DNA of 63,938 nucleotides, counting the filler, from Jimgerdemannia flammicorona (Eukaryota), in NCBI GenBank assembly GCA_003990765.1. It is 2 parts of 2 records of this genome, joined end to end, with 100 filler letters (N's around TTAATTAATTAA, not from the genome) between each part and the next. Parts side by side here need not be neighbours in the genome. Positions count along the whole stretch, not along the records: positions 1 to 31,942 come from RBNJ01000370.1; 1 more part is not named here. One strand, given 5' to 3'. The notes under the pieces are model-generated. The model had not been told where the DNA came from, ran no database searches, and saw only the letters and a program-made list of their open reading frames with translations. The position numbers were made by a program, and so were the translations under genes. Positions 8,630 through 63,938 of the stretch are shown in pieces (the stretch's first letter is position 1; each line of letters begins with the position of its first letter).

Positions 8630-10460
8630 AATTCTTGTTTCAGTTCCGCATCTTGTGCCCCTTGCGGACCTCTTTTTGGTTCCGCATCTTGTGCGCCTTC
8701 CGGATCTCTTTTTATTTCAGCATTTTGTACCCCTTGCGGATCTCGTTTTGGTTCCGCATTCTGGGGCCTTGCAGGATCTCTTTTTGATTCCGCATTCTGA
8801 ATCCTTGCAGGATCTCTTTTTGGTTCCGCATTCTGAAGCCTTGCAGGATCTCTTTTTGGTTCCGCATTCTGAAGCCTTGCAGGATCTCTTTTTGGTTCCG
8901 CATTCTGAATTCTTGCAGGAGCTCTTTTTGGTTCCGCATTCTGAATCTTTGCAGGATCTCTTTTTGGTTCCGCATTATGAATTCTTGCAGGATCTCTTTT
9001 TGGTTCCGCATTCTGAATTTTTGCAGGATCCTTTTTCTGAATTTTTGCAGGATCCTTTTTGGTTCCGCATTCTGAATTCTTGCAGGAACTCTTTTTGGTT
9101 CCGCATTATGAATTCTTGCAGGATCTCTTTTTGGTTCCGCATTTTGAATCTTTGCAGGATCTCTTTTTGGTTCCGCATTCTGAAGCCTTGCATGACCTCT
9201 TTTTGGTTCCGCATTCTGAAGCCTTGCAGGATCTCTTTTTGGTTCCGCATTCTGAAACCTTGCAGGATCTGTTTTTGGTTCCGCATTCTGAAGCCTTGCA
9301 GGTTCTCTTTTTGGTTCCGCATTCTGAATCCTTGCAGGATCTATTTTTGGTTCCGCATTCTGAGTTCTTGCAGGAGCTCTTTTTGGTTCCGCATTATGAA
9401 TTCTTGCAGGATCTCTTTTTGGTTCCGCATTTTGAATCTTTGCAGGATCTCTTTTTGGTTCCGCATTCTGAATCCTTATAGGATCTTTTTTTGGTTCCGC
9501 ATTTTGAATCTTTGCAGGATCTCTTTTTGGTTCCGCATTCTGAATAATTATAGGATCTCTTTTTTGTTCCGCATTCTGAATCCTTGCAGGATCTCTTTTT
9601 GGTTCCGCACTCCTTGCAGGATCTCTTTTTGGTTCCGCATTCTGAGATCTCTTTTTGGTTCCGCAATCTGAATTCTTGCAGGATCTCCTTTGGTTTCGCA
9701 TTCTGAATCCTTGCAGGATCTTTTTTTGGTTCCGCATTCTGAATTCTTGCAGGATCTCTTTTTGGTTCCGCATTCTGAGATCTCTTTTTTGGTTCCGCAT
9801 TCTGAGATCTCTTTTTGGTTCCGCATTCTGAATTCTTGCAGGATATCTTTTTGGTTCCGCATTCTGGGCCTTGCAGGATCTTTTTTTAGTTCCGCATTCT
9901 GAATTCTTGCAGGATCTCTTTTTTGGTTTCGCATTCTGAATTCTTGCAGGATCTCTTTTTGGTTCCGCAATCTGGGCCTTGCAGGATCTCTTTTTGGTTC
10001 CGCATTCTAGGCCTTATAGGATCTCTTTTTCTGGCTCTTACATGATTTCTTTTTGGTTCCGCATTCTGGGCCTTGCAGGATCTCCTTTTGATTCCGCATT
10101 CTGGGCCTTGCAGGATCTCTTTTTGGTTCCGCATTCTGGTTCTTGCGGGATCCCTTTTTGGTTCCGAATTCTGGGCCCTTGAAGGATTTATTTTTGGTTT
10201 CGCATTCTGGGCTCCTTGCAAGATCTCTTTTTAATTCCGCATTCTGAGCCCTTGTAGGATTTCTTTTTGGTTCCGCATTCTGGGGGGTTTTTGTGGATCC
10301 TCACGAGCAACTTATTTGGGTTCCACATTCTGGACCCTTGTAGGATCTCTTTTTGGTTCCGCACCTGGGGTTTTTTGAGATCTTCATGAGCAACTTATTT
10401 GGGTTCCACATTGTAAGATCTCTTTTTGGCTCCGCATTTTAGTATGTCTTTTGGTTCCGC
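8630..10460. repeat. 36-bp minisatellite array, roughly 50 units
   Basis: Consensus TTGCAGGATCTCTTTTTGGTTCCGCATTCTGAATTC. A variable hexamer (GAATTC/GAAGCC/GAATCC/GGGCCC-like) and some shortened units occur, but there are no unique spacers. Confidence 0.95.
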
Positions 10461-10789: not shown

Positions 10790-12710
10790 AGAATTCGACA
10801 CGGTACCGCAAATCTCTGATAGTAGCTCTCAATACGCGGAACCGTCGGGAACACTTGCCTGAAGATCTTTTCAACGTGGAGATTTTGACACGCTATAGCC
10901 ACTTATATCCGATCATTCAATTCACCAACCACGTCGAATTCCCCAACAGCAGTGTCTTGTATGCGTTTTCTGCTTTTCCCTGTGGATTCGGGTGGTGTTT
11001 CAAGTATTCAGCAGAAGCTGTTGAGGAAACGGTTTCCAATGTTTAGGCCTCAGATGACGTCTGTGTTGTTTATTTTCTCAATCTTTGTTCCTACGAAGGA
11101 ACTAGGAGTACGTTTGTCCGCATTGCCGGGAGAACAGCCGAGTGAATTGTGTTGAGATTGCAGAACCGTTTTTGGAGGCCGTCGTACCAAGTAAGTATGA
11201 GTACAAGCTACGCTCACTGGTGTTGATCCCCGGGAAATATGGTGACTGAAATTTAACATCCGCTCGCACGAAGTTCTTCGTGATATTCGCGTTCTATTTT
11301 GTCTACTGTGCGCTCTTCACAATGTCACTCGAACTCGAAAAGAAAGAGCCCAAAAAAAATCAAATGTCTGAAGAGCCGAAACGGTATTCTGGGGTCGTTT
11401 GTGAGATGGCAGTCCTGTCCATCATTACAGAGTTGCCATGGTTTCCGAGGATACATTGTCACTCCATCCAACGTCTTTGAGCTCGGTACATTCATCCTAC
11501 CAATCGTATACGTAAGAAACCTCATGCTTGGTGAACCCATGCCAATTCTTCTCCGTCCAACAAGTGCGCTTTTAGGCTGGTTTCGGCTGGTGAGTGTGTT
11601 TCCATGTGTGTGTGTGTGTGTGGGGGGGGGTTAGGGTAGAGAGCAGTGGCTTGCCGTCATCTGGCCAAGTGACTTATAATTGAACCTTGCTTCACAACAC
11701 ATGTGCGTAGATACCAATCGGACCCCAGCATTACGTGCGTGATGTTTATCTTTGTCGTGGTAACCAACACCCTGTCCCTTAACATCTTCATCGCACTTCG
11801 TGAGTAGACAGATCTTATTTATTCAGAGAAGGTTTGTGAATTTTGCATTTAATTAAATCAAGTGAATATTCGGATTGCATTGAGGAAAAAAAACCTAAAC
11901 TAATCGCACTTTTCCAAAATTACTGCCCTAGTCGAATCTGGACAACGTCTTTGACTCCTCCTGTTTGTCCAAACTGTTGCCGATATTAAGCTTCACCCAT
12001 TTCTCGATGTTTATTGGCAGCGGCATGCTGGTTCCCACCTTGTGTTTACTACATCAGTATGTATGCGCCTGATTGTATTTAATTGACTTCGAGAAAACCT
12101 GATGTCTTATGTTTTATTTATTTTATTTATTTATTTTTCCAAATGGTAGCGCATGATGTTGAAATCGAAGCTTACGGAAAACAGCCCACAAAAATCAGGA
12201 GGACCAAGATGAGGTTCAACAACGGAAAATCCTGACGTGGGGCCCGGCCGAGCAGTTCAGGTTTCGCACCATCATAACTGACCCAATGTTTCATATTCAT
12301 CGCCTCTTTCATATACACAGCATTTGAAAATATTCTCGACGTAGTCGAGGCTCTGTTTAACTGGATCGATTGGACCATCTTCCCTTCAAACGGGGACAGA
12401 CGATCGACAGGCCTTCTCCTCAGATTGGTGGTACGGTGAGTGCAAGAGCAGGTAGGGGATTTTTCCCTCTAACTTTTTTGGTCTCTGCACAGAGGAATCG
12501 CAATATCTTTCCATGGTTTCAGAACCTAACATGTCCAATATGAGGTTGAGCACTGAGGCGCTGACCAACGTGCAGAATGACGGGAGGATATTGAGACTAA
12601 GATAATCGTGCCTGTTGCCATTTGCGCTTGGGGGCTGGGTTGCGTTTGTGTATTTTCTGGAAAAATGTGGTATATTTCTAATTTTTTGAAGCATCAATGA
12701 CGCTGTAGAC
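10790..12710 (+). pseudogene. 5'-truncated, frameshifted copy of the TRP-like/SH3 gene lacking exons 4-5
   Basis: Matches 19660-22250 (VEILTRYSHLYPIIQFTNHVEFPNSS, YIVTPSNVFELG, LRPTSALLGWFRL, SH3 remnant WWYGECKSR*GIFPSNF). Introns are retained. Frameshifts and stops present. Confidence 0.9.
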
Positions 12711-15960: not shown

Positions 15961-17334
15961 GCATTTCTCCCACCACGCCTCCCTCTACCCTTGTTATCTG
16001 CTCCTCCTAACATATATTAGATAATTTCAAAAAGATGAAGTCGTGGTTTTGGGATCTGATATGGTGTGTCCGTGGCAGTTGTCTTTTCTGCGGACATAAG
16101 GTATACGTATATCCGCGGCACGCGCTTTTTCTCCTTGTATCTACACGCCGCAGGAAATCCAGTAGTCATAGAAATATTATTTATAATTTATGAAGCGACA
16201 TACTCCAATAGAGCTGCAAAAATAAAGATTTTTATTAAGTATGTTGAGATTGGAATTGCCTTGCACGATGTCAAAATGCGAACTGTCTTTTGCTAGCCAC
16301 GAAGGATCTAGGGACAAGACAATTATAGAATGACGGTTGAATTGTTGTTCTTCAGATAGTTAATCGGCGCTCGTTAATCGTCATTCTTTTATGTAGTTAA
16401 CCGTCATTCTTTTGTGTAGTTAATCGTCATTCTTCTGTAGTTAATCGTCATTTTATAATCATATTCAAGGGTTGATCGCCATTCTATAATCGCCGTGTTC
16501 TGGTGTTAGAGTTTCGGATTATCTGATGCAGATCCTGTACCAGTTTAGATCCGATTCAAAGGATTACCTGGTATCAGTTTCTGTTTCCCTAGCATGAACA
16601 TTGTTCGGATCATCCAAGCTCAGCAACACGTCCGCCAACCCACTTCTCCTTTTGCGTGGCGGAACGTATTGTTATTGCCCTTGGAACCTTCCACCAAGAT
16701 CATTTCACTACAGTCGCCTCAAGTGAACAACTTCGAAAGTCAAGGTACAGCCATGTCACAACATCGAAAGTAAGATATTACGTAAAGAGAAATTGGTTTT
16801 CGTACACAGTAAACGTGCTAGAATTTTCTGATCAGAAGAGGGTTTCAACGACAGTCATTAAAGATGTACGACGAAACCGATATTGGCAGTCAATTTCATG
16901 ACCCGCTGTGGCGTGTGAAATGGCATCCCCCTATGACCACGAAGCCACAAATATTTCTATCCCAAACGCCACCGCCATCGCCAAAGCACGAATGATAGAG
17001 GGTATATTCAATGTACGCCACTTGTATAATTCAAACTGCGGTCGACGGATGATACCAAACTGATGTAATGCTGCGCCTTAAGTGTAACAAGATAGGATAA
17101 CAAATATGCGAAGTCGGTAGAGAAAAATTGAACACGATGATTAGGTTGGTTTTAAGAATTCAAACCGCGCAAATGCCACCGTGGCTGTACTAAGGAAAAA
17201 AAAAAAAAAGAACTCGGGCCAACCTAACAGCTCAAAAGCCCGCAGTATCACTTCTGTCAACCTCTATGCCAGTCTCGACAGCACCTGATTCCTAGCCCAT
17301 CATTATCCACTATCCGCAACAAGTTCCAACCCTA

Positions 17335-20300
17335 ATGATGTCTGACGGTAATGACGACATCGGATTGCAACATATGCCATCACACGGCTCGTCGTCAGCA
17401 TCGGCATTGAATTCTCCACAGAGCAAAGAAGGTGACATCCTGTGTATAAAAACGTCAAATAACGGCGATTTCGTAGCTTCGCTAAGCAAAGAAGATGAAC
17501 AAGCTGTGGTTCGGATCTGGCGGGCTCCCAAAGAGGGCAAACAGACAACGACGCTCGAAACCGAAGCTGCTCTGCACAAGACAAAAATCGACATTCACAA
17601 AATTCTCCAAACTGGCGAGTTCGTAAACATGTCCATCACCGTGGCCAATTCGGGAGACATCTGCGCTGTGTCGTTTGTACCCAGGAGAAATCCGCACAAT
17701 GATAGCTACGACGATCGCGACAAGCCGGTGATGGATGGCCATATCCTATACACCTACAAACGTTGGTGTGCTGAAGGTGACTGGCTTGTGCCACATAAAG
17801 ACAATTTCGGGCCTATCATCATCAAATTCGTCAACGCTAGCGGTATCGGCACCGACCATCCTCCTGCCTCACCAGTTTTCAGAAGTGCCGAGGAAGGGCA
17901 ACATACAGATGGCCAGATACAAGAACTCCAACTGCGCAGCGGCACCGTTTTCTTTGGCGATGATAACCTCCTCGGCATCGAAAGTATGATCCTCTGTTGC
18001 CCGCCTTACCTACGAGTGTATCGCCTGCCAGACCTTATCGTCACTCGTACAATCTACTTCGACATTTGCAACATCGTCCGTTCGCTTGACCTCGATCCAA
18101 ATGTCGCAGCCCTACACCGGAAAATGGACCGTTTATCGCTCATGTATCAGTCAATCCCACAGCTTCACAAAAGTCCGTACCAACTTCGCGAATTGATGCT
18201 GCGCAACATTGCTCCTATGGATTCCCGCTGGCAGTCCCGTTTTGCCTTGTCATCCGATGGATCCCGCCTCGCTGTTCTTTCAAATGTTGATAAAGCTATT
18301 ATCAACAGGTATTTTGTCTATTCTCATTTATTTATTTATTTATTTTTTTTTTTTTGCTGTTTCTTCACTAACTCGATCCTCATTCCTATGTACTGGGAAG
18401 TTTGTATATAACTGTGCATATTCTACACATGAAGACCGGACTCGAAATTATGCGATGGAGGGCCAAGATAAAACCCAAAAAGTTAGGCTTCCACGACGTA
18501 GGCGACAAACTCACCATCGTAGCTTCTGAAGGAATCTATGTCTACGACGTCAACACAGGCGCACAAATCACAGTCGAGCGACCAAATGAATGCTGGCTTC
18601 ACAGCCAAAGGCAATACAGCCTTAGTCAAGTGGAAGGTGGGATTGTGATCAAACCGCTGATGCAAAATGTTTCAGATGCAAATCTCCAGCTGAGGGAGTT
18701 GACGGCGGCCAAAGGGGAGGTACGGTTTGGAGACACTGAATGGTCATTGCAAGTTGAACGTGATGAAGACCAGTATTTCTACATCTGCTGCGTAAGAAGT
18801 GTGTCGAAACCACCTGTTTCCGAACCGAAAAGGTTTGCGTTTCAGCCGCTCAGCAATGATCATCCTTTCCGTCTACCGTGTCATTTTGCAGTGACCGAGG
18901 AAGGCGCCATCCTCGTCATTACGGCCATGACTGTACAGCTGTGGTCGCGACCGACAACTAAATGCAACTACCAGCTTCAAGATTTCTGGTGCATCTCCAA
19001 GCCAGGCCGGATCCGCAGCAAACAGCCAAACGCGATCGACAAATGGCAGACGAAGGCCTTTAAGGAGAATGCGAATACTGGCGCGGGCCACATCAATGTG
19101 AGAGTGTTCCTGTGCGTAACTACTCCGGAGAATGGTGATCAACCGGAATTCAATTCACATCACGAAATCGTCATGGGGGCGTCAACTCAAGTGCAAAAGG
19201 CATTCAGTGGCTGCCGCTATTTCTTATTACTTTCGAAGGGGATCACGGAAAGGAGTTGCAAGTGGACCTTGCCACCGAAGACCGAAAACATTACGCACCT
19301 CACGGATCAAATTGCCCAGATTCTCTCTGAATACATACCAAGGCATCGGTTTCCTCGCATCGACATCCGCCTATTTGACTCTCCCATTTTGTATCTCTTT
19401 AACTTTCAAGATCTCGATGCTGTCTTTGCCGCCTACCGAAACTACCGCCGTTGCATCTTCTCCTGGATTTACGAATCGGACGACATCCCAAACACCTTGT
19501 TCTCTTACGTGAGCGACCCTGTCGTCGAGGGAAAGATTATTCGATGGATGATTCGCCAGATCCAACGTGGAGAAATCGCGTACGGCCTTATACTCCAGCA
19601 GCAGATTCCGGACTTGATGGATGAAAACCCGGCGCTAGTTGGAGAAATTGCGCGAGCGTTATCCTACCAAGTTTGCATCGTTCCCAATGTCCAGAACCCC
19701 ATTTTTCTGCGTCAGGAACGCTCTCCTGAAGAAGGTCTTTCGAACCGCGACGTGGAGATTTTGACACGCCACAACCACTTATATCCGATCATTCAATTCA
19801 CCAACCACATCGAATTCCCCAACAGCAGCATCTCGTATGCGTTGTCTGCTTTCCTCTGTGGATTCGGGTGGTGTTTCAAGTATTTGGCAGAGTTGCCATT
19901 GAGGCAGTTGAGAGAATGGTTTCCAATCTTTAGGCCCCGGCTGAGGCCTGCGCATGTCTGTGTTGTTCCTTTTCTCAATCTATGTTCCTACGAAGGAACT
20001 AGAAGAAGTACATTTGCCCACATTGCCGGGAAAATGGCAGAGCAAAAAGTGGTTGAGATTGCGGAACCATTTTTGGAGGCCGTCGTATACCAAGTAAGTA
20101 CAATACAAGCTACACTCACTTGCGTTCCACGGAAAGTATGGGCTTAAATCCTTAATGTGTCCTTTACCTCTTTCTAGAAATGGCGAGCATTTGCTCGCAC
20201 GAGGTTCTTTGCAATATTCGCGTTCTATCTTGTCTACTATGCATTCTTCACAATGTTACTCGAAACGGAAGCGCCCATAGACAACCAACTGTCCGAAGTG

Positions 20301-20559
20301 CAGAAACGGTATTCTGTGGTCGTTTGTGGGATGGCATCCGTGTCCATCGTTATGGAGTTGTTAAAATGCTGCCATCGTTTCAGAGCATATATTGTCACTC
20401 CATCCAATCTTTTCGAGCTCGGTGCATTCATTCTACCAATTGTATACGTGAGGTACCTCATATCTGGTGACCCCATGCCAATTCTTCTCCGTCCAACTAG
20501 TGTGCTTCTAGTCTGGTTTCGGCTGGTGAGTGTGTTTACATATGTGGTACTTTGGGCCC

Positions 20560-20594
<35 letters not shown>

Positions 20595-21577
20595 AATACC
20601 CAGAACAAACTCGAATTTCGTCCTCTTATAGATGATGCTACTTCGCGTTTTTAAACCTATTGGAATATTTGTTGCCGTAATGAGCGAGGTATGATCCTGT
20701 ACTGACTTGCACCGAAATCATTTCTTCAAGACATTACCACTTACGTTTAATGCTAAACCCGATTTTAATCCCGCATGCAAAGATCATTAAAAGGATGGCC
20801 CCTTTCCTGATTGTGCTTGCGATGGCCCTTTTAGGTTTCGCACAAGCCTTATATGAACACCTGAAGCATTCCTGCCCAAACACCACGGCTTTCAACATCA
20901 TTAATGGCACCATAGGCAATGAAAATGTCAGCTTGAGTGCATTTCCATTCGATGCATCTGGCAATGATTTCCATCAGGACTTCAAAACGGTCTTGGGTAA
21001 TGTTTTCTTTTTCACATCTCAAAACTATGCAACGATGGCAATGTAAGTTTATTTGTTTATGTTGTGTTGCATCTTTTTTCGGGTGGGGATGGGAGACAAA
21101 AGGTTGTTAGGGTAGATAGCAGTGAAATTTACTTTACAACACATGCGCAAAGATTCCAATCGGACCCCAGCATCATGGGCGTGATGTTTATCTTTGCCGT
21201 GGTAACCAACATCCTGCTCTTGAACGTCCTCATCGCTCTCCGTGAGTAGACAGACCCTATTTATTCGGAGAAGGCTGTGAATTTTGCATTTAATGAAATC
21301 AAGCGAAAATTCAGATGGCTCTGAAGAACAATCCCGAAACTAATCGCACTTGCCCGATATTACCTAGTCAACAATGTCTACAACAAAGCTCTCGAATCTG
21401 GACAACGCCTTTGGCTTCTCCTGTTTGTCCAAATTGTTGCCGATATTGAGCTTCATCCGTTTCTCGATGTTTATTGGAAGCGGCACGTCAGGGAGGACTG
21501 GTTCCCGCCCTATGTTTACTACATTGGTATATATGCACCCGATTGTCTATTGTAATTGGTTAAACAAAACCAATGTC

Positions 21578-21629
<52 letters not shown>

Positions 21630-22148
21630 AACGATAGCGCACGATGTTGAAATAGAGGCTTACAGAAAAACAGCCCACAAAAATCAAGGGGATCAGGATG
21701 AGGCTCAACAGCGGCAAATTCTAAAGTGGGGCCCAGCCGAGCAGTTCTCAGATGGTAGGTTTCGCAACATCATAGCTGACCCCAATGTCTCTTATCCATC
21801 GCCACTCACACACAGCCTCTTTCAAATACAGTGTTTGAAAATATTCCCGACGTAGTCGAGGCTCTGTTCGACTACAATCCAACTGAGAACCAATCGGATC
21901 ACCTTCCCCTCAAGCGGGGACAGACGATCGATGTTGTCCGGGCCTTCCCCTCAGGCTGGTGGTACGGCGAGTGTGAGAGCAGACAGGGGCTTTTCCCTTC
22001 CAACTTCGTTGGCCCCTGCACAGAAGAGTCGCAATATTCGGAACCTAACATTCCCGATACGAAAGAGGCGCTGATCAACGTGCAGAATGACGGAAGGAGA
22101 TTGTGGTTCCCATCCATGGACTCGTTGCCCAATATTCCTAGAGATTAA
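17335..22148 (+). CDS. TRP-like 6-TM cation channel with beta-rich (WD40-like) N-terminus and C-terminal SH3 domain; 9 exons, ~1337 aa
   Basis: Exons 17335-18308, 18401-20093, 20178-20525, 20632-20688, 20783-21042, 21153-21241, 21368-21526, 21638-21754, 21832-22148. All introns are GT-AG, phases join, total 4014 nt with one open frame. Motifs: pre-S1 FLEAVVYQKWRAF, S4-S5 WFRLMMLLRVFKPIGIFVAVM, S5 FLIVLAMALLGFAQAL, S6 TNILLLNVLIALLNNVY, TRP-helix-like WLLLFVQIVADIEL...DWFPPYVYY, SH3 VEALFDY...HLPLKRGQTI...SGWWYG...GLFPSNFV. The WD40 call is weaker (RFALSSDGSRLAV, VRIW). Confidence 0.9.
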
Positions 22149-23050
22149 GACTGAAGTAATTTGATTGTACCTGCTGCCATTTGCACTGGGGACTGGGCTG
22201 AGTTGTATATTTCTAGAAAAATGTTGATACATTTTTATTATTTCGATACGTCAATGTTACACTCAACAATGTCATCAAAAGGGTGTGCTATTGTCAGGTG
22301 ATCCGTTTTCAACAGGGGGAAATTCGGCCATTCTAAAGAACGTCATATTGTAGAATACGGAAAGAGTTCTCTCTTTTTTTTTTCTTTTTTTTTTTTTTTT
22401 TCTTCTCTTCTTTTTTTTTTTGGTAATTTTTATATATTTTTTTATTTATAATAATAATAATAATATATTATTATGATATTGATATCACATTTTTATTTTA
22501 TTTTTTAAATAAATATTATATTTCAAATATATTACTAAAAATTAGAAAGTTTATTATTATTACATTCAGTATTTTATTTAATGAAGAGATGGACTCACTG
22601 AACATTGTATGACTTTCTATTTCCCTTGCACCGCTCTTTTTCAAAATTATCTGCTCAGTTTCGATAAGAATTAATCATCTAGATTTATCTTAAAGATAAT
22701 TATAAGTAAATATGTCCATTTTGTCATCTAACTAGGGAAAGAAGAAAAGAATTACGTGATGGTCGGGTACTGTTCCACTTTAAAAAAGTTAATTTCGAGA
22801 TCAGACTCTTGAACATATTTTATTATTTTTTTTATGACAATTGCATTCCCCATAGAGATTACCCAAATTATATCGTTATGCCCTCCATCCTTTCTGTGTG
22901 ACTCTAAACAACATATACTTTTTTTTTTCTTTGTTTTTCTTGGTTCCGCACCAATGGCCGCGATTTGAGCTCAATCTTTTCTATTTGGTATTTTTTTTTT
23001 TCTCCCTTGCTCCCAATGTGCATGTACCCGTGTTTTGCTACTCTCAATGG

Positions 23051-27395: not shown

Positions 27396-27844
27396 TCTCG
27401 TAACCTTTTCTGGAATTTAAAATTCTGGCGGAGTTCCGTTCAGACATACTGCGGAACAGTTGAAGATATAAAAGAAAGGACCTACTTGAGATCTAATAAT
27501 TTATTCCACTTCAGTTTACCACCCACCTTCGACATTCTTCAAAATGACTCGCACTCGCGCTTGGCTCCGCGGCCGACGCAATCGTTCACCCAAAAGTTGT
27601 AGCCACCAAGAGGTTTGAGCATTCCATCTTGGTCCTCCTCAAATGGAACGGTCATCAAAGTACCTGGAAGAAAGATTGGGGCATCACTCACAACTCGTTC
27701 GGTCAGAGTGAGTGACTTGGTGTTACTCACTGTAAGCACGTGACATTTGTCTATGTCATTCTATAAACGTCATCAATTACTACGTCACGTAAATACTAGA
27801 CTCTAGCTCCTTCTCCCTCCACTTCATCCGAATTACAACAATTT

Positions 27845-28460
27845 CAACAAAACCAATGTCTTACTTTTTTTTTTTGCTTTTCTTTTTTTGTTGTTTTTTG
27901 TTTTTTTATTTTGTTTTTTTTCTCCTTCTCCGAACGATGATGAAATGGAAGCTTACGAAAAATAGCCACAAAAATAAAGAGGATCTCAACAGCGACAAAA
28001 ATCCTAAAGTGGCATTTCTCGGATGGTAGGTTTCGCACCAGCATAGTTTTCCATCCATCGCCTCTTTCACATACACAGTGTTTGAAACTATTCCCAACGC
28101 AGTCGAGGCTCTGTTCGACCAGAATCCAACTGAGGATCAATTGGATCACCTTCGGGGGACTGACAATCGACGTTGTCCGGGCCTTCTCCTCAGGTTGGTG
28201 GTACGGCGAGTACGAGAGCAGGCAGGGGATTTTTCAATCTAACTTTGTTGGCCCCTGCACGGAGGAGTCGCAATATCTCTCTGTGGTCTCAGAACCTACC
28301 ATGTCCGATACGAGGTTAAGCACCGAGGCACTGATCAACGTGCAGAATGACGGGAGGAGATTGAGACTGAAGTAATCTGATTGCGCCTGTTGGGGGCCTG
28401 GGGTGCGTTTGTGTATTTTCTGGAAAAATGGGGTATATTTCTATTTTTCGAAGCTTTAGA
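27845..28460 (+). pseudogene. Remainder of the third TRP-like copy (intron 7, exon 8, SH3 exon 9)
   Basis: Matches 21560-22250: TIDVVRAFSSGWWYGEYESRQGIFQSNFVGPCTEESQY. Frameshifted. Confidence 0.85.
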
Positions 28461-28659
28461 CAACATGTCATCAAAAGCTGTGCAATTGTCAAACGATCTG
28501 TTTTTTTTTTTTTTTAATGTAACAAAGATGGTAGCAATTCTGCCATTCTGAAGGATCTTAGGATACGAAAAGAGTTTTATTTATTTTACCATAAGCAAGG
28601 TTCTTAGTATGGCCGTTTCATAATGTAATATAATTGTATAACCGTTCCAAGTTTCGACA

Positions 28660-31060: not shown

Positions 31061-31854
31061 AAAAAGATGGCACGATCGGGGTGGTCGGCGACGGACAGGA
31101 GCTGCCATAGATGGTCATGTTCAGAATCATCCGTCGTTGACATTCTTCCGAAGTGTATTCAAATCTTTGTGCTTTTTATCCTTGTTCTCTACCGACCCTT
31201 CGTAACCTAGTGATCACTAGATATGGCAAAAAGGCCTCATAGAAATATTATTTAGTTGTTATTATATATATGCATGAGGCAATATTCTCTAGTTATACTC
31301 TAACAGAGCTTCAATAATAATAATAATAAGGTTCGTTAAGATTGGAATGGCCTGTGTGTTGTCAAAGTGCGAACTGTCTTTTGCTAGACCATATTAACCG
31401 CAGAACGGCGATTATGAAATGATTACTAACCACAAGGCGATGATTAACCTCACGATCAACCGCAATTAGGTTGATTGGTATTATGCAGATAGTCTAGTCG
31501 GCGCTCATTCTTTTCCGCAGTTAATCGGCATTGCTCGTCGTTCTATAATCGTCGTTCTGTCGTACTGCTGGACCTGATTCGAATACTAAGATGGGCATTC
31601 GGAATATTCTGGAATATGGAAGTTCTCGAATTGATCAGTATTTCCCAGCGTCTGGAAAGAAGCAGCCGAAATTCTTCAAACAGCATATCATGTATCGTGC
31701 GTCGTCAACATTTCAAATTTTCTGGTATCCGCTCCAGGTGTATCTGCTTTGGTTGTATCTGCATAGAAATTGGCTGCAGAGAAGGTAAGATCTCGATGTA
31801 TATTCAAAAAAAAATCGAGAATTTTAATTACACATGACTTTGCCACTTCACTAT

Positions 31855-31942
<88 letters not shown>

Positions 31943-38218: not shown

Positions 38219-38610
38219 TCAAGTAGATCCAAAGCCTTGTTCTCCTCTCTTAGTCTTGATAAGTTCAATGGCTTCAGTGATTTTAGGCTTCTTGACTTTA
38301 TGAATCAGCATCTGGCCAATCCTGTTATACTTCTGAACTTTGAATGGAGTGGTGGGGTTGTGATTTCTGACTATGAGGAAGATCTCACCAGTATAATCAG
38401 AGTCAATTACTCCTCCTGTAACTGAGATTTTGCTTTTGGCCAGACTGCTCCTGGTCTTGATAATTCTGACATAGTTCTCTAGCAATCTAACTTCAAGTTG
38501 AGTGGTGGTCTGTGGTTTGAGGATAGCATTTTGAATGCTGGCAAGATCCATTCCTATGGCTCCTTTAGTCTTGTATTCTGGGATCTTGGCTTTAGAGTGA
38601 AACTTTTTAT
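38219..38610 (-). pseudogene. dut: Retrotransposon-encoded dUTPase domain between protease and RT
   Basis: All five dUTPase motifs: GAIGMDL, TRSSLA, GGVIDSDYTGEI, RIGQMLI, KRGEQGFGST. Confidence 0.93.
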
Positions 38611-40831
38611 CCTTGAGAGTGATGTCTAGTTCTTGTTCCTTCTCATCATCACTATCAGCTTGAAGCTCTGGGGGCTGGTCATCTTCTTCAGCTTACTTTT
38701 TTACTTTAACAGCTTCTTGTTTATGCCTTTATTGATAGATTTTTCTGACTTCACTGATGTAGGACCAGTAGTCATTCAGATGTTCAGAGCAGTATATTCT
38801 AGTATCATGGGGGCATCTTTCTTGAGGGGCATAGCCATTGATGATCTTATTGTACCACTGCTCATCTGTAAGCTTGGGTGTCTTGCTCTTATTCTTATAT
38901 ACTGAGTGCATGAAGACTTCTGTGTCCTCTTTATCTCCTTTCTCTATATCTGATAGTACTCCTTTATAGACATTAATAGAGACTCCTACCTTTCTTTCTC
39001 TATAGTTGATCTATATCTTCTGGGCATTGAGGTCAATGATAGCCTTGGCCTTATGAAGTCATTGGTTGTCAATAAGGATGTCATAGTTAATGGTACTTGT
39101 AACAATCATATCTACTGAGATAGTAGCTTCTCCAATCTTGATGGAGACTTCTCAGATCTTGTCTAGAAGGGTAGCTTATGTACCATCTTCTGTAACATAG
39201 ACTATTTTGATAGACTCTTCAATGTTCTAGCCTAGGCAGTTAATTGTCTTCTTACTTATGAGGTATCCTCCAGCACTAGTATCAATGATGGCATCAAAGA
39301 TACAATCTTCAATCTGACATAAAGTATAGGCTGATGTCTTGTACTGGTATTTAGATTCTTTTCTCAAGTCTTTTTAATCATCTTCTTATGCATTGTGAAC
39401 TTCTATAATCCTGTGCTCTTGGTTCTTAATAGTGGTTGCAAGTCTTACTCTCAACCACTATCTGAAGGGAAAGACTTTAGCTAGTTGTCCAAAAGTAGCA
39501 TTGATCTTCTGTTTCTTGAGGTCTTTGTAGATATCATACTGATAGATCTTGATCTTATATAGCTTCTGTTCTTTCTTGCTTTTACTTTCTCCTAAGACTG
39601 GAGTGGTGTCTTTAATGATTTGGTAGGTAGCTTCATCTAACTCCATATCTTGATCAATCTCCTTAAGTTAGGTCTTGCTTTGAATAGTAACAGCTGAGGT
39701 CTTCATTGGTCTTCCAACTGACTTGCTGTTGCCCTTCTTATCATAGAGCTTGGATTGAGTTCTGGTACTTTCAGTAATAGAGTAGAATTTGGACTTCTCA
39801 TAGTATTCTTCATCATCAGTATCACCAATCTCCTCAATGATCACTATATTGGTTTGTTCTCTAGTTCTAGTAGTATTGCTTAATTGGACATTGTGTCTTG
39901 TTTCAGTCATACAACTCTTTACATAGTGGCCTTCTTCTCTACATCTGAAGTATATAATATTGCATTTTCTATAGTAATTGTAAATCTCTGTACTGGCCTC
40001 CTATTAGTGCTTTAGACTTCTCTAATAACATCACTAAGGTATATAGTCATCTCAGCAAACTACTTAGTGAGTTCCTCCACTAGATCAGCTTTGGCTACCT
40101 TGGGAGTAGGTGGGGATAGTTATCTGATTATGACTGTGGTAAGTATAATACTAGTTGCCTTTTGTGGCTCTATCTTGATACTAGTTATTTTCTCTATTGA
40201 GTGGTTGGCAGAGTGTCTGGCAGTCTAATATCTCTATGCAAAGACCATTTTCTGATCAAGGATCAGAGTAGCTGGGGTAGACTAGATTGTTAGGGCAATT
40301 TCAGAGTGAACTTCTTAAGGAAGATTGAATCAGCTATTTGTTTCTTAAGGGCATCATCATAGTCAGCTAAGACAATCTAGTGGCAGATTCAGGTGTAGAA
40401 TGAGGGGGGATCTTCACTGAGTCTCTAGTAGATAGTATTGAGTAGATCCTTGAGAGCTTGCTTGATCTCTTCAGTATAGTATGTAGTTCTGAGGAAGGTC
40501 TTCATATTGACAAGTTTGGCTGCACCAGCATTAGTAATAGTGGCTATATTAAACTTATCTCTGGCAGATCCTCTGAGGCTCACAGGTAGAAGGGCCAATT
40601 GTGCATCCATATAAGAGCTCATATAGTGGCAAATTGTTCAAAGTCTTCAATAAAGATCAGGATTGACTTTTCAGCAATATATCTACAGAATGTGGGGAGA
40701 TATATTTCTATCTTATCTTGAATTCTTACAGGAGTGACTCTTGTAGTCAGTGTAGTTATTGTGGTAGTTGTTCATTTTTCAGTTTGAAAGTGAGGGATTC
40801 ATCTTAAATTACCAGCCAATGGATACTAAGT

Positions 40832-53270: not shown

Positions 53271-56229
53271 AGAAAGTATATCTCCTTTAAGTCAACCACC
53301 TTAAGAGGAATATTCCTCAGCAAGTATACTACCAATCAGTCAAACTGCACAAGAATCTCATCCTGGAGGCTGGAGAACAAACCACCTTCGAAATCTTTGC
53401 ACCACTTGACCCCAGAAATCTTTTCTTTGAACCCAATGAAGATATCTCACATCTGGACATAGAAGGACACACATTCTCTGACAAGATAAATCCAGTATAT
53501 TCCCAAGCAACCAACCAAAGTTGAGAAACCATCATCTTGCCAAAAGAAAGCATCATAGAATATCTGGTGCCTTTTCTCAACCAAACCTATAGAGAAGTTT
53601 ATGAACTAAACTTATCAGAAAATGGCAAAAGATCCCAGAAGAAAGGAAAGGCCCCTCTGTGACCCAGGAGACAGTGAAGCCTTCTACCAATATTGGAGAA
53701 GAATTGACACCCCAGTAATGACAACAACTAGTAGAACTCCTCAACAAATACCAAGATATCTTCACTACTGATTATGGCAACCTGCTATATAATCCGTTAT
53801 ATCACTATAGCATAAATATAGGAAATATAACACTCATTTGGCAGAAACCTTACAGAATACCCCATTACTTAAAAACATTCAAAAAGGAGCACATTCAAGA
53901 AATATTAGATAATAGAGTCATCCAACTGTCTACCAGCCCCTGGGCCAGCTCTATACTTATTATATCAAAGAAAGGAGGATGGAGACTTTGTATAGACTAC
54001 AGGAAACTCAATTCAGTCACTGAAAAAGATGCCTATCCTTTGCCAAGAATTGATGACCTTTTGGATCAGTTACAAGATGCCAGATACTTCAGCAGTATGG
54101 ATCTTTTCACAGAATTCCATGAGATTCCCATAAACCCTAAGGACATTCAGAAAACAGTCTTTCTTGCACTAGAAAAACTGTTTGAATATCTCTGAATACC
54201 CTTTAGACTTAGCAATACACCTCTTATCTTCCAGAGGATGATGAATTTACTCTATACCCCCTTGATCCACTACTGCCTGATTGTATATATGGATGATTCC
54301 AATATCTATTTAGCAAATTTTAAATAATATCTATACTATTTAGAGGAATTCTTCAATCTCACCTACAAGAACCACCTGAGACTCAATGCAAAAAAATGCT
54401 ACTTTAAGAAACAGAAACTTGAATTCCTTGGATTCATAGTTTTAAAAGAAGGAACCCATACATATCTCAAGAAAATCAAGGAGATCAACAATTGGCCAGT
54501 ATCCAAGACCCCAAGGGAAACATTATCATTCTTGATACTAGTATCTTACTATAGAATATTTATCAAGGACTTTGCTCAAATCTCTGCCCTAATTCAGATC
54601 TTTCTCAAGAAAGGAGTACCTTACAAATAGACAGAATCACAAAAGAAAGCCTTCAAAGAACTTAAGAACTGTATGACCACAGCATCAATCCTTGTGTACC
54701 CCAATCTACAGAAGCCATTCATCTTATATACAGATATTTCCAAAGATGGCCTAGGAGCAGTTCTTGCCTAAGAAGGACCTGACCAATAGTATCATATGAT
54801 AGCTTATGCAAACCAAGCTACCAATCAGCAGTAGATGAACTATGGTAGCACCAAACTAGAATACCTTACAGTTATATGAGTGGTCACTCTGTTCAAGCAT
54901 TACCTCATTGGAAAAAGATTTACCTTAATCACAGACCATACAGCCCTCAAATGGCTATTCAACTATAAGGAACCTATCAGAATCCTAGTCTGCTAGATCC
55001 TTATCCTTTAAGATTACAAAATCACCATCATCCACAAAGCAGGGAAAGCCCATAACAATGTTGATATACTTTTCTGCCAGCTCCAACGAACCAGAAGAAG
55101 AGTGTCCCAAGAAACTACACCCTAAAGGACACTCCTCAGACCATCAAGGCACAAGAAGATCTTATTCAAAAAAAATACCAGAAAGCTTACTAAGAATAAG
55201 AAAACATAGAAGAAAAGTTGTGAACAATATACCAACATTGGCCCAATCTTAGAACACAAGTCTGGGACATCCTCAAGAAATGTGACATCTACCAGAAATA
55301 CCAAGGAAGGAAGAACTACCAAGTACCACTGCAACCAATCATACCACCAGACAACATCTTTTGGAGATAGAAAGTAGATATAATTGGACCCTTATCAGTT
55401 ATACTAAGAAGAAACAAATACATCCTTAATATCTGACAAAGTGGCCCAAGGCTTTCCCAATAGAAATCACAAATGCCTTAACTATTGTAGGCCTTCTCTA
55501 TAGACTCACCCTCAGATATAGACACTCAGAAGAACTTATCTCTGACTGAGGTACAGAATTCATCAATAACATAATTACCAGTTATACCTAAATTCACAAG
55601 ATTCACCTCAAATAGACTATATTATACCACTCTTAGACCAATGGTATGATAGAAAGAATGAGCCAGACCATTAAGAAAGAACTTGCCCAAGTCAATCCTA
55701 TTAACTGGGACCTCTGCTTACCTGAGATCTTATGGGAAATTCAGAACACCCCTATAGCCTCTATCAAACAAAAGTCATTTGAAATGATGTTTACTAAGAG
55801 AACTAGAACTACTGATCATAAGGATCTCAGGAACCTCCTCAAGAAGGCAGAATAGTTATATAATCAAGCCCAAGCTCAGATTATCAAAGCTCAAGAAAGA
55901 CAAAAGAAGTACTATAACCAGAAACAGAAGAATTAGGAGATCAAGATTAGAGATCAAGTACTAGTGTAGAGAAGTATGATTGAACTGAATTTTGCCACCA
56001 AACTAGAGCCCAAATGGGAAGGATCTTATCTTGTACACAATATCAAAGAAACCAGTATCTATTTAAGAAGTATAGATGGACAGACCCTCAGGACACTAGT
56101 ATATATCAATCATCTCAAGATATATCTATCTCCATACCATAAACTAGAGAGTTGACAACTGCCTTCAGACTCTTGTCCTTAGCTCATTTCAATCACTACT
56201 AGTTCCCCTACCCTAATTCCAAGAAGTCA

Positions 56230-58628: not shown

Positions 58629-61600
58629 TGTGACAAACCAAGACGTACTACCCGAATCATATCTTTACCAGATGACGCGAACAAGATGACGTGAACACTC
58701 AGCTTAGTAACCAGCAACCACTTGCTGTGGAAACTGTATAAATAGCCAGACATACCAGAAAGGGTCTGTTTATCTGTACAGACTCTGTACACCGTACAGA
58801 CTCTGTATACTGTACAGGTCCTATACACCGTACAGACTCTGTACACCTGCCATAAGTAGCAGATCTATAGTTAGCCACATAGTAACCAGATAGCAACCAA
58901 CTTGTATAAATTACCCCAGTGGCGAGAGTGAATAAAACCTCAGTCCGAATTGAAGTGCAAACCAAAGAAGCCTCTAAAGATTGAGCAATTGGTCCCCTTA
59001 TTCCCACTCCAGTCCACTTTCTGATACAAAGCCTGAAGATTTGCCGCCTAAGTTCAAGGAGAACTTCGCCGCCTTTTGAAGAGAAACCCACTGCTTAAGG
59101 AATAAGCCGCACTATGTTTTGGTTCGCTTGCCAGATAAGCCTGAAGATTTCCGCCTTTTCCGCTGCCTAAAGGAAAGCCGCCTTGCTCAAGCCAGTTTCT
59201 GACGCAACTTCGCAGTGATTCGTCACGCAAACGAAGCCAGTCTTTGACATAACTTTGCCAAGAGACCCTTTCCCAAAAAAGCCGCCATCCGGTTTCCCAG
59301 TTGAAGCCGCCATTCTCAAGTTACCCATATTCCCAGTTAAAGCCGCTGATTCAGGAAGAATCCGCGCCATCCGAGTTATTTCCCAGAAGCCCGCCGATTC
59401 AGGAGAATCCGTGCCATCCACCGTTTTCGAGTTATCCGCATTCCCAGAAAACCCACGCCATCCGAGTAGTATTCCCAGTTAAAGCCGAAACCGCGACATC
59501 TAAGTTATTCGTCATTCCCAGTGAGCCCAGTATAGAAGAATCCGCGCCATACGATTCCCAGTGAGCCAAATCGAGCTATCTGCCAGAGATCGCATACTTT
59601 TGGAGATTGTTGCGCTATACAAGAAATCGTCTGCCACCCAAGAAGGAGAACCGCTAAATTACCAGACCGTCATGCACAGAGATCGTCGCGCTACACAGAG
59701 ATCGTCACGCAGAAATCACATACTTTTGGAAACCCGTCGCACTACACAAAGATCGCTGCACTACACGAAGATCGCCCGCCACCCAAGAAGGAGAACCGTT
59801 AAATTGCCAGACCGTCACGCACAAGGAGATCGTCGCGCTACACAGAAATTGTGCCATTCCCAGTTGACCCAAGAAGGAAACCCATTCACACAAATCGCCG
59901 CTACACCTAGAGAACAGTCCCAATAAGGAAACCACTCGCACAGTATCCAGATCTTGACTATTATACCACTAAACACCAAGAACATTTTGTTGCTTTTAAC
60001 AAAGTAACTGGGGGCTCAAGCCAAACTACATCAACCCCCAATCTTGTAATTTGCCTCCATTAAGCCAGCACATTACATTTGGGGGCTCAACTGGGAAGAT
60101 TTCAAAATCGACGTGACTTTTCAGCTCACAAGAACCCACAGTCAAACTGGATACATTTGATACAACACCAACCTCTGCTACTACAGGAGAACCAGTCATC
60201 ACTAGCATTTGGACAGGAAGAGAAGTAATTACTTCAAGCCTTGCCAACTATCCAGCATCAGATGGATCTCAACCAGAAGCAGGAGGCAGTACAGCCCGAA
60301 ATCCTCAACCAGATCAACCAGATCAACCAGACAATACAGGCAGCCCTGCTGGAGATTTTGGAGAACTTGCACAAGAACTAGAAGACTTTATTACCCGGAC
60401 CCAACACCCCACACCAGTCCCACCAATTTCACCAATAGAACCCCTACCACAACCTCTTGCAGAACCAGAAGTAGCTCCTACAAGGATACCTAGACCTACT
60501 CCACCTCATCCAAGGACCAGAACACCATCTTCAAGATACCCAAGCACCCTGGTCTCTAGTGACAGTTCAGAAAGTGAATCAGAATCAGAATCCGAATTTG
60601 AACCAGAATCAGAAGAAAGTGACAAAGAAATGGCCACCTCATTGCCAATCTTTGCAGGATACCCAGAGGAAGACCCAAGAGAATTCCTTGATGGAATCGA
60701 AGGAATCACAGCCCTGAGGAATCTCTCAGACGAAAGGAAAATCGCCATCTACAAAGCTCAGCTCAGAGAACCAGCCAGAGGGATTTTCCATCGAACAGCA
60801 AACAACCCAGATTCCGAACTAGCAAGACAGATATAAGCAGCAGTCTCCTATGAGCTAGAATATCAGGCCATAGTCTACTGGCTCATAAAAAAGTATGCAG
60901 GAAATGAAACCCGCTACAAGGCCCAGGAATCCATCATGGGAATGAAGATGAATCTTGGAGAATCACCCAGAGCCTTCTTTACAAGAATCCAGAAGAGGAT
61001 GCACTCTGCTGGGTTCAATGCCACCAACCAAGACATCATAGGTCCAATGACCTTCATGAATGGGATTCCTCTGAATATTGCCCAGCATGTCCACAACCTA
61101 GGCATCAGAAGGTCTGAAGAGCAAGTAGATGCAGCCCAAGAATTCTTTGATGTCAGGCAAGGAACTACCTGGAGTGACCATGACAAGAAGAAAGATAAAG
61201 AAGATATCCTGGTCAAAGCCCTACAAGGACTCCTTCAAGGACAAGAAAGGTCTGAAGAAAGAAGGCCAGCCAAGGAAGAAAAGAAAGACAGAAGTGAAAT
61301 TCAAGACCTCAGCTCCAAGTTAGACCGATTGGTTGGGCAGATTGAAAAACTCACCACACGCGAAAATCGGGATTACCAAAACAACAGAGGATACCCATCA
61401 CAGAGGAGCCAAGGTTATCCACCAAGGGATAACAGGAATTACCAGCAAGAAGAAAGAAGGTACCCTGCCCAAGACAGAGCCCAAGTCCAATGCTTCCACT
61501 GTGGACAATTCAGACACTATGCCACTGAATGTGACAACAAAAGAAGTGACCGAAGGGACTCAGAACCACCAAACCGAAGGAATGACACCCAGTACAAGAA

Positions 61601-63938
61601 GACTGAAGCCCATCCTGTTGAAGATTTCGAGGAAGCAAGCAACAGTGAAGACTACAGTGACCTAGACTTGTATCCCACCAAGGTTACTACCCAAAAGACA
61701 GTCTACCCAGCAGAAAAAAGAAAGAGACCTGTGGGAAGACCATCCAGGAACATCAGCAGAAGAATTATTCAAGAGGAAGATGAGGAACATGAGGAGGAAC
61801 AAGTTGAAACACCCCCCCGAACTCCCTCACCTTTTGTGCCTGAGACAAATGAGTTGCCACCAGAAGATGAAGAAATGGAACAAGAAGAATGGGAACCTGT
61901 TGCTCCAAAACCTAAAAAGAAGTACACCCCGAAGACCATGCCTAGGGATATTTACAATGAAGCCTGGCAGAAGATTCAAGAAGCCAAGATGGAAGTTCCT
62001 CTCCTGCAGTTCTTGCAATTGACACCAGCTGGAGTCCGAAACAAATTGCTGAGAACCACCAGGTCTAGCACTGGGCGAGTTCCAATCCCACAGCAAGAAC
62101 CAGCCTCCATCCCTGTCCAAGCAGCTGAAAGACATGTCAGTACCTACTTACATGGAGACATTGGAGTACAAAAAGCAAAAATCCTCATAGATACAGGAGC
62201 AGCTGTCTGTGTCATTGCCAAACGATTCCTGGACACCCTCCAATGGCCCATTGATGGACCATCCAACCTCAGCATCATAGTAGCAGATGGAGCCCGAACT
62301 CAACCTCTTGGAGAAGTACGAAATATCACCATCTCCCTTGGACACATTCAGTTCTCCATCCCCAAAGCTGTTGTCACCGAAGCTGTCACCTATGATATGA
62401 TTCTTGGCACCAACTGGATGAAGGAAATGAATGCAGTTGTTGATATTGGCCAACAAGTACTCAAGTTTGACTACCAAGGCAAGAAGTATAGAGTTAAGGT
62501 GACCAGCTATGAGCAATCGAAGAAGAAGAAGAAGGTCACCATTCAAGAAGAGTATGCCAGCAGTGAGGAGTCTACTACAGAAGAAGAAGAAGAATCTGAA
62601 GATGGAAATGATCCCAGACTCAATCCACGAATTAACCTGGTGGATGACAGACCAGAAGACAATGTGTGGGCCAAGAACACTATCCCTATTACCATTGGAG
62701 CCATCGCAGGAGAAGCCAAAGGATGCCCCACATGCCTCAAGAGACACAAGTGTCCCGAGCACTCCTCCAAGATCATGGGAAAGAGGAAATCGCCTGGTGC
62801 AGCTTGCCCAGAATGTAGAAGAAGAAGAAAAAATGCAGACATATTCCAGAAACACCTGCGACCAAAGCTGCAGAAGTACAAGTAATTTGGGGTCAAGAAT
62901 CATCTGAGGAAGAAGAAACTTCTGACCAAGAAGTTCCTGAACAAGAAACACCTAATGAAGAAGAAGTCCCCAAACTCATCCCCTGGGATGACCCCCACTG
63001 GACACCACCTGAAGACAATGACCCCTGGAATACAGAGGAAGGACCCAGTACCATCACCATTATCCTCAAGAAAGAAACCCACCAAGAGAAAGCTTTTTGG
63101 CTAGGAAGATGTCCACATCAAATGGTCTTCCACTCTCCCCGAGACTACTGCTATCAGTGTCATCTGTTGGACCAACAAGAAAGACAGAGGCCCCAGAGGC
63201 CAGAACCCCCAACTACTCTTGCACAGTCTACTACCTTCCAAGAAGTCACCACAAGGTTACAAAGTTGATTTAGGGGACAAGGCTTCTTCACCCGAACAGA
63301 AATATACCCCTTGTCTACCCTTCCACCAACCTATGACCAAGATGGGTACCGATTCCCCAGACAACAAGAGATAAACAGCCGGGAACATCATTTCGGAGCA
63401 ATGGGATATTGCAACCATGGGAGACACCCTGATTGCCGAGACTGCAGACATCAGAAGATTCACCTCAGTCATGATGTTGCAGTACATACCCTGAAGAAAG
63501 GAGATAACCGAAGCCAGATCCGAAAAAGCCAGATTCGAAAAAGCCAGACCAAGAAGCCTGGAAAAAGAATTCTCAAGATCTACGATTTGGGAGAAGACAT
63601 CCTAGCTCTTATCAGACATGCAACCTGCCAAGGATGGGCAGAAGATGCCACCAACTTCATGGAAGCCCTTGATCCTACAGGAAGGAGGGGAATCAATTAC
63701 CTCCGAGACCCCTCTACTGGAGCCAGATGGCCACACCTCAACCTTAGAGCTTGGAGGCTTTCTGCTAGTGGAGCTTCAGCCTTAGGAAAGCCAGAACTCA
63801 GCAAAGATATTGCGCAGTATGCCCTGCTGCACCCCAAGGCCAAACCCCCGACCAAAGCCCACCCAGAGGATGTAGGATATGATCTTCACAGCCTGGAGGA
63901 TGAAAATATCAAGCCAGGAAAAACCTTCATGGTCAGAA
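58629..63938 (+). mobile_element. Less decayed Ty3/Gypsy family 2 element running off the window end
   Basis: LTR 58629-60077 (TG...CA) preceded by ATAT; PBS TGGGGGCTCAACTGGGA at 60080; colinear with 47737-52990 throughout. Confidence 0.95.
60111..63938 (+). pseudogene. gag-protease-Cys/His insert-dUTPase polyprotein (partial, disabled)
   Basis: Capsid-like LPIFAGYPEEDPREFL, knuckle CFHCGQFRHYATEC, protease ILIDTGAAV...ILGTNWM, dUTPase start YALLHPKAKPPTKAHPEDVGYDL (~63818). Lesions: start ACG TGA (ATG in the sister copy), TAA at 60834, a short frameshifting deletion near 62820, TGA at ~63265. Confidence 0.9.

Follow-up and report, generated by a model that had tools for sequence, protein, structure and literature searches.

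Introduction

To our knowledge, every characterised subfamily of transient receptor potential (TRP) channels depends on partners in trans. For TRPV4, contact between an SH3 domain of PACSIN3 and a proline motif tunes the location and gating of the channel. The fungal osmosensor Sho1, which has four transmembrane helices, carries a C-terminal SH3 domain that binds Pbs2. Here we describe a nine-exon gene of the fungus Jimgerdemannia flammicorona (assembly GCA_003990765.1) that is predicted to encode a TRP-type channel core and an SH3 domain in one protein of 1337 amino acids (aa). The gene lies in a stretch of 63,938 nucleotides (nt), referred to here as the window, in which two parts of two genome records are joined by 100 filler letters (positions 1 to 31,942 are from RBNJ01000370.1).

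Group-I-type TRPs are otherwise associated with animals and protists. Like the group-I channels TRPV1-6, Inactive/Nanchung and the TRPM2 chanzyme, the window protein is predicted to have a six-helix core and the TRP fingerprint, and the S6-TRP sequence of members of its family aligns with theirs. Unlike these channels, it lacks ankyrin repeats or a melastatin homology region and has instead a region of ~890 aa without Pfam assignment. Also unlike them, it ends in an SH3 domain, its filter glycine is not evident, and its similarity beyond S6-TRP is below Pfam thresholds.

The window protein is about twice the size of TRPY1 and, unlike TRPY1/Yvc1, has an SH3 domain. It resembles the TRPY1/Yvc1, TrpY1-like, Trp2 and Trp3 channels of Dikarya, as described in the available text of Prole and Taylor (2012; PMC3410928), in being TRP-type and in having a Gly-Phe pair in S5, which is noted there for TrpY1. 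The same text gives a C-terminal acidic patch for Ca2+ activation in TRPY1/Yvc1-type channels; the linker of the window protein (aa 1193-1240) contains 21% Asp+Glu by composition.

The likeness to Sho1 is one of design. Both would be oligomeric, multi-pass membrane sensors with a cytosolic C-terminal SH3 domain for a partner with a proline motif. Sho1 is non-homologous and not a channel, with four transmembrane helices and no pore versus the six-helix TRP-type core predicted here. In the TRPV4 system the proline-rich region is in the channel and the SH3 domain in the partner; in the window protein this is reversed, as the SH3 domain is built in.

In the full-text literature we found no TRP channel with its own SH3 domain (supplements and a systematic query of domain architectures were outside the scope), and none of the papers returned deals with TRP channels in Endogonales or Mucoromycota. 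There are 0 occurrences of "SH3" in the available text of three TRP surveys (PMC3410928, PMC9242649 and bioRxiv 10.64898/2026.06.15.732245). This agrees with a preliminary description of the locus, made from the DNA alone, which stated that characterised TRPs lack such a domain. The combination of this N-terminal module with a C-terminal SH3 domain has so far not been described for the TRP superfamily.

We propose, with a probability of roughly 0.6, that the product of the gene is a cation-channel subunit of the TRP superfamily in Endogone-like fungi (Mucoromycota), and that its SH3 domain would dock proline-rich partners and so couple the channel to a signalling complex.

Gene structure and transcripts

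All GT..AG pairs around the eight gaps between open frames were enumerated, and the combinations free of stops were retained. The gene model obtained in this way comprises nine exons on the plus strand (17335-22148; 4014 nt, corresponding to 1337 codons and TAA), listed in Table 1. The frame is open across all nine exons, the splice sites are canonical, and an in-frame stop is located directly 5' of the first ATG. The preliminary description had arrived at the same number of exons and codons, and its phase-1 intron 8 was reproduced by this enumeration.

Contigs of two public sequencing runs (X1 and X2) were compared with positions 17300-22200 of the window; 14 of 44 contig rows are listed and form the basis of the statements below. 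The RNA nature of the runs is a guess, as it is not on record. The runs were taken as complementary DNA solely because contigs lack introns, the absence of which at GT..AG borders indicates that they derive from spliced RNA. Contigs of X1 have 0 differences to the window at 17305-18075, 18437-19174, 19523-19991 and 21839-22200. Removal of intron 2 is seen in a contig of the exact locus (joint 20093^20178), as is that of introns 3 and 4 (20525^20632 and 20688^20783, also given as 20524/20631 with the cut at +1 and 20686/20781 with the cut at +2), apparently in one contig of 457 nt. The window copy is an intact, transcribed gene.

None of the exact-copy contigs among the rows listed bridges introns 1, 5, 6, 7 or 8. 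For introns 1, 5, 6 and 8, removal is visible in paralogue contigs alone, with the joints 21042^21153 and 21236^21368 occurring in those of both runs. A 950-nt paralogue contig with deeper cover is ~89% identical to the window in exon 5 (28 mismatches over 262 nt) and is joined at places homologous to the borders of introns 3, 4, 5, 6 and 8. Its channel-to-SH3 joint (21754^21833) has one substituted letter and is followed by 36 letters within the SH3 exon. Downstream of exon 5 this contig has 399 letters, equal to 89+159+117-3+37 (exons 6, 7 and 8 together are 365), where the term -3 stands for a 3-nt in-frame deletion in the paralogue at the position corresponding to 21487. By this arithmetic, intron 7 has also been removed, and its joint lacks a printed row because the poly-T repeat was skipped in the contig comparison. 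The paralogue's spliced contig also covers exon 8, with differences to the window at 21687-21721.

A paralogue transcript thus documents the channel-to-SH3 junction within the gene family of this organism. For the 21754/21832 junction put forward in the preliminary description, this homologous joint in a copy of ~89% identity is the transcript found, and the joint of the exact copy is not among the rows listed.

It is very improbable that the window copy is decaying or non-functional, or that the SH3 exon stays unjoined to the channel in its mature messenger RNA. Two degraded copies do lie within 10 kb on either side, retroelement relics are many, and the transcripts with deeper cover are those of the paralogue. 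Against this, nine exons are open with canonical splice sites, identical contigs fall on exons 1, 2, 3, 4, 5 and 9, and three introns have been removed. There is no separate start or promoter-like gap before exon 9, and the SH3 domain is joined both in the paralogue contig and in a gene model of Endogone (see below). The transcribed paralogues show 115 differences to the window, 40 of which are listed; of these 40, 23 are synonymous changes and 20 affect third codon positions, a pattern of genes under purifying selection.

Some further features of the runs were observed. The paralogue of ~89% identity is absent from the window, and its contigs are deeper than those for the window's copy. In run X2 there are additional variants whose S5-pore loop is shorter (joints 20688^20911 and 20987^21153). 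Long poly-T runs (up to ~50-90 nt) occur in introns 1, 3 and 7 (18319-18367, 20549-20602 and 21572-21637), and poly-T runs broke contigs of the sequencing runs.

Conservation in Endogone

Among longer proteins, a search with the exon-2 protein returned one match (E 4.5e-138), the hypothetical protein BC937DRAFT_87543 of Endogone sp. FLAS-F59071 (RUS22732.1, 1287 aa; P0001). This is the only named relative. The spliced model and the Endogone protein are identical at 576 of 1180 aligned columns (49%), with 41% identity in exon 1. Shared between them are the N-terminal region, S6-TRP, the sequence flanking the exon 8-9 junction, the SH3 domain and the last part of the tail. The SH3 domain and tail shared by the two proteins indicate that the fusion arose before the two fungi diverged and was retained thereafter. 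From these alignments the fusion is old and is conserved in a small, lineage-restricted family, sequences of which come so far only from Endogone-like soil fungi. The preliminary description had presented the locus as a chimera of sensor, channel and adaptor; as a one-off event this does not hold, given a 49%-identical protein that ends in a like SH3 domain and tail.

The Endogone record is unannotated and lacks S1-S5 (at residues about 953-1010), because its gene model continues reading where the window has intron 2. The deposited protein is thus not recognisable as a complete channel. With its public relative annotated in this form, the family is invisible to surveys of domain architecture.

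Few other relatives were recovered, and the family is very rare. HMMER searches against 1.84 billion representatives gave four matches, all of them exon-size fragments. Apart from the Endogone protein, searches with the pore-S6-TRP part yielded just two further fragments, again of exon size. One relative (P0008) is an exon-size counterpart of the exon 5 part. A metagenome scan with the exon-2 protein gave no match. One metagenomic candidate (L001 6001-6063, 72% G+C) resembles 21 residues of P0007, an independent 84-aa relative, and was rejected as chance, having no tblastn match to the whole protein. In a protein atlas, two Mucoromycota clusters of "Ion transport domain-containing protein" lie closest to the N-terminal part, with scores of 0.85 and 0.82, a lead to a wider family.

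The channel core

Hydropathy predicts six helices (aa 899-917, 936-954, 965-985, 991-1009, 1029-1047 and 1123-1141), the last of which, S6, follows a loop of 60 aa. The TRP fingerprint in the available text of PMC9242649 consists of 12 residues, which in rat TRPV1 numbering are 426, 434, 441, 563, 591, 638, 666, 676, 678, 679, 680 and 697. All 12 can be placed in the window protein, nine of them at exact rat TRPV1 spacing. Just before and in S1, Trp891, Phe899 and Tyr906 (W-x7-F-x6-Y, at +8 and +15) match 426, 434 and 441. Further on, Phe1125, Asn1135, Leu1137, Ile1138, Ala1139 and Trp1156 (at +10, +12, +13, +14 and +31) match 666, 676, 678, 679, 680 and 697. The S6-TRP pattern arose by chance in 2 of 20,000 shuffles of the window protein. 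The pre-S1 pattern arose in 2385 of 20,000 and has a second occurrence at aa 150, so that it counts by location alone. The other three residues were assigned by context, with no structural alignment: Gly1016 in the S4-S5 linker, the Gly-Phe pair 1042-1043 in S5, and Phe at 1099-1101 in the pore helix.

Matches to solved channels were obtained with relatives. For the pore-S6-TRP stretch of the Endogone protein, 58 of the 60 PDB rows listed (phmmer) are TRP channels. The top row is Drosophila Inactive (E 7.4e-5), with an alignment that spans S6 and the TRP helix, and others include TRPV3, Nanchung, the TRPM2 chanzyme, TRPV1, TRPV4 and OSM-9-like; no TRPY1 chain is among the 60. For P0007, all 15 PDB rows at E<=1 are TRP channels (E 0.0079). 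Precomputed matches to PF23317 (YVC1_C) exist for the Endogone protein and for P0007 and were not recovered by hmmscan at E<=10. In the protein atlas the pore-S6-TRP part scores 0.94 beside Ion_trans, YVC1_C and PKD_channel clusters, which is a lead only. A PDB search with an alignment profile of all 1287 columns was dominated by SH3 matches.

Hydropathy, fingerprint and the TRP matches of relatives together support identification of the core, at sequence level, as a TRP channel with a group-I type signature. They bear out the six-helix TRP-like core and TRP helix that had been recognised before.

Three of the 10 N-x-S/T sequons of the protein (aa 1057, 1065 and 1072) are in the turret, within 18 residues. 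Such clustering in the S5-pore loop fits an extracytosolic loop and cytosolic termini, and hence a cytosolic SH3 domain.

The SH3 domain and tail

The SH3 identity of exon 9, which had been read earlier as a canonical domain in its own terminal exon, is certain from its profile matches. Pfam SH3_1 (PF00018) matches with E 3.5e-13 and 49.4 bits (cutoff 22.9), followed by SH3_2 (7e-11) and SH3_9 (1.2e-10). Matches at E<=0.001 include 165 solved SH3 sequences, with the C-terminal SH3 of Grb2 the best (1.7e-13) and p47phox and Sem-5 also among the top matches. All positions of what we take to be the ligand-groove motif (aromatics, Trp-Trp and Pro-x-Asn-aromatic) appear to be occupied. The phase-1 intron seven codons before the SH3 core is compatible with a conjectured origin by exon shuffling.

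The main rival to docking of partners in trans is that the SH3 domain acts in cis. It would bind the protein's own PxxP loop (aa 177-181, encoded at nt 17863-17877 in exon 1) or the tail, as an autoinhibitory latch or inter-subunit clasp released by a stimulus or competitor. There are only three PxxP motifs in 1337 aa, one aligned with a PxxP of Endogone and two in the 43-aa tail after the SH3 domain. The terminal motif of the tail is conserved with Endogone, and the tail end is conserved in the transcribed paralogue as well (loose end at 22115). By our estimate, a protein of this length and composition would have about three PxxP anyway, and the last motif in Endogone is a shifted proline pattern rather than PxxP. 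A complex prediction of SH3 (exon-9 residues 1-66) with tail (67-104) scored 0.09, where the mark is 0.34, and weighs neither for nor against cis binding. On balance we consider cis binding unlikely and favour docking of proline-rich partners in trans.

The N-terminal region

The N-terminal ~890 aa are probably beta-rich and propeller-like, followed by a helical pre-S1 region. The evidence is from low-confidence models and from the Endogone relative. Exons 1 and 2 of the window match no Pfam family at E<=1. The Endogone protein matches several WD40-type propeller families far under their cutoffs (e.g., Beta-prop_THOC3, 22 bits versus 305). An AlphaFold2 (AF2) model of the exon-2 protein from seven sequences has strands in residues 1-260 and helices after ~300. 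In the protein atlas, propeller clusters are near the N-terminal part at 0.80-0.81 (leads only). The large beta-rich N-terminus of the preliminary description is therefore retained in part: model strands and sub-threshold WD40-type matches of the relative agree with it, and exons 1-2 of the window themselves give nothing.

Proposed function

The proposal builds on the gene structure and the evidence for transcription and splicing, on the SH3 domain and the TRP-type sequence signature, and on an arrangement conserved in Endogone, all of which are established. From N- to C-terminus the protein would comprise a lineage-specific cytosolic domain of ~890 aa, a six-helix TRP core with a re-entrant pore, the TRP helix, a charged linker, the SH3 domain and the tail. 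By comparison with TRP channels, four subunits would form a non-selective, Ca2+-permeable cation pore with both termini in the cytosol. Such a tetramer would place four SH3 domains beneath the membrane. Their partners would most likely be proline-rich proteins of the cortical actin, endocytic or polarity machinery, or a kinase scaffold. Docking could keep the channel at a particular site in the membrane and link Ca2+ entry or membrane stress with a signalling complex, by analogy to the C-terminal SH3 of Sho1 holding Pbs2. Gating by, or recruitment of, PxxP partners, as put forward in the preliminary description, is likewise conjectural.

Several observations weigh against this proposal. Matches to Pfam Ion_trans (PF00520) are all under the gathering cutoff of 25 bits: exon 3 (E 0.21, 11.2 bits, profile 2-84), the pore-S6 piece of the Endogone protein (E 0.02, 14.5 bits, profile 168-236, colinear with the exon-3 match) and the whole Endogone protein (11.7 bits), the tests having been made by exon or on pieces rather than on the spliced core. 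Exon 7 of the window alone has 0 matches to PDB sequences, and exon 3 alone has two chance-level rows only. The TRP matches come via relatives whose S6-TRP stretch is contiguous; that of the window is split by intron 6. The channel identity suggested earlier has TRP chains in its favour through relatives, and Ion_trans remains below its gathering score. AF2 models are too poor to use both for exon 3 (four sequences; four helices, predicted local distance difference test (pLDDT) 52.5) and for the exon-2 protein (pLDDT 42.5). With the low-confidence exon-3 model, Foldseek found no match at E<=0.001, and 28 of 33 rows at E<=10 are TRPV-family chains, a hint at most. A contig of the exact locus, apparently the one of 457 nt, spans 20781-21063, i.e., exon 5 plus 21 nt of intron 5, indicating some unspliced RNA or DNA in the run. 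Moreover, the runs may be from the sample behind the window assembly and are thus not independent of the window. Lastly, from its context the putative filter lacks the glycine that is present in 86% of TRPs (Cabezas-Bratesco et al. 2022, eLife, PMC9242649, available text) and has no obvious acidic residue. Selectivity, and even conduction, may therefore not be as in other TRPs.

The filter also raises the alternative that the TRP fold has been kept and conduction lost. The protein would then work as a scaffold or receptor anchored in the membrane, through its propeller-like N-terminus and its SH3 domain. The missing glycine and the lack of a clear acidic ring in the sequence would fit such a role, as would the ~1000 of 1337 residues that are predicted to be cytosolic. 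However, the gating set (Asn-x-Leu-Ile-Ala, the S4-S5 Gly and the TRP-helix Trp) is kept in full in the window. Its S6-TRP part is kept in Endogone too, the remainder falling in the part missing from the Endogone model. Retention of gating residues at 49% overall identity fits selection on gating. We thus regard a non-conducting scaffold as distinctly unlikely, though less so than decay of the window copy, and prefer a conducting channel that docks partners through its SH3 domain.

A broader reading goes beyond this channel with docked partners, and we offer it tentatively, as doubtful but somewhat less so than cis binding. Endogonales are root-associated fungi. They may have a private clade of group-I-type TRPs in which a beta-propeller stands in for the ankyrin or melastatin N-terminus and an SH3 domain was added. 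Such proteins could act as both Ca2+ conduit and scaffold, with four SH3 domains as a tether to the cortical cytoskeleton or a MAP-kinase scaffold, and turnover of the family could be an adaptation in hyphal sensing. The turnover cited for this reading consists of several transcribed paralogues and decayed copies.

A natural TRP with a built-in SH3 domain and a non-ankyrin N-terminus would be a test case for whether proline-motif anchoring sets channel location or gating. It would also serve the question of how far the cytosolic outfit of a TRP core is swappable. In addition, it would show that fungi beyond Dikarya keep TRPs with the full animal-type fingerprint, which bears on the channel repertoire of opisthokonts.

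Genomic surroundings

Two decayed copies of the gene were identified in the window (Table 1). Copy A is frameshifted and is missing exons 4-5 as well as the N-terminal exons; remnants of its SH3 exon can still be recognised. The preliminary description likened the birth-and-death pattern of this neighbourhood to fast-evolving signalling or non-self-recognition loci. Birth and death is reflected in the two decayed copies; for non-self recognition, the window holds nothing beyond those copies and retroelement relics.

Table 1. Coordinates of the gene and of neighbouring features in the window.
Feature	Positions	Strand	Description
Exon 1	17335..18308	+	aa 1-325; opening portion of the N-terminal cytosolic region
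Exon 2	18401..20093	+	aa 326-889; remainder of the probable beta-rich region, then helical pre-S1 region
Exon 3	20178..20525	+	aa 890-1005; pre-S1 Trp891, S1 (Phe899, Tyr906), S2, S3, start of S4
Exon 4	20632..20688	+	aa 1006-1024; end of S4, S4-S5 linker with Gly1016
Exon 5	20783..21042	+	aa 1025-1111; S5 with Gly-Phe pair, putative extracytosolic turret, pore helix with three Phe
Exon 6	21153..21241	+	aa 1112-1140; S6 with Phe1125, lower-gate Asn1135, Leu1137, Ile1138, Ala1139
Exon 7	21368..21526	+	aa 1141-1193; TRP-domain helix with Trp1156, then conserved Trp-Phe-Pro-Pro-Tyr stretch
Exon 8	21638..21754	+	aa 1194-1232; charged linker from TRP region to SH3
Intron 8	21755..21831	+	phase 1; seven codons 5' of the SH3 core; sole in-frame GT..AG pair in the searched range
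Exon 9	21832..22148	+	aa 1233-1337 and stop; SH3 nt 21855-22016, 43-aa tail nt 22017-22145
3' untranslated region, at least	22149..22200	+	exact-locus contig runs past the end of the examined stretch
Decayed copy A	10843-11610, 11681-12593	+	74-76% DNA identity to 19710-20546 and 21123-22103, introns included
Decayed copy B, S3-S4 and S6-TRP fragments	27375-27217, 27171-26796	-	rearranged
Decayed copy B, linker, SH3, 3' end	27843-28491	+	SH3 piece 77% protein identity
Minisatellite	8660-10282		~47 copies of a 36-bp unit, 83% matches; just 5' of copy A
Retroelement relics	38222-38692 (-), 53722-54192 (+), 60837-62882 (+)	-, +, +	dUTPase 9.4e-23, reverse transcriptase 6.9e-08, retroviral-type aspartyl protease 1.6e-09

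The minisatellite is open in several frames on both strands. Intergenic poly-T runs are present at 22372-22421 and 31850-31942, and the second half of the window is AT-rich (G+C 0.28-0.40).

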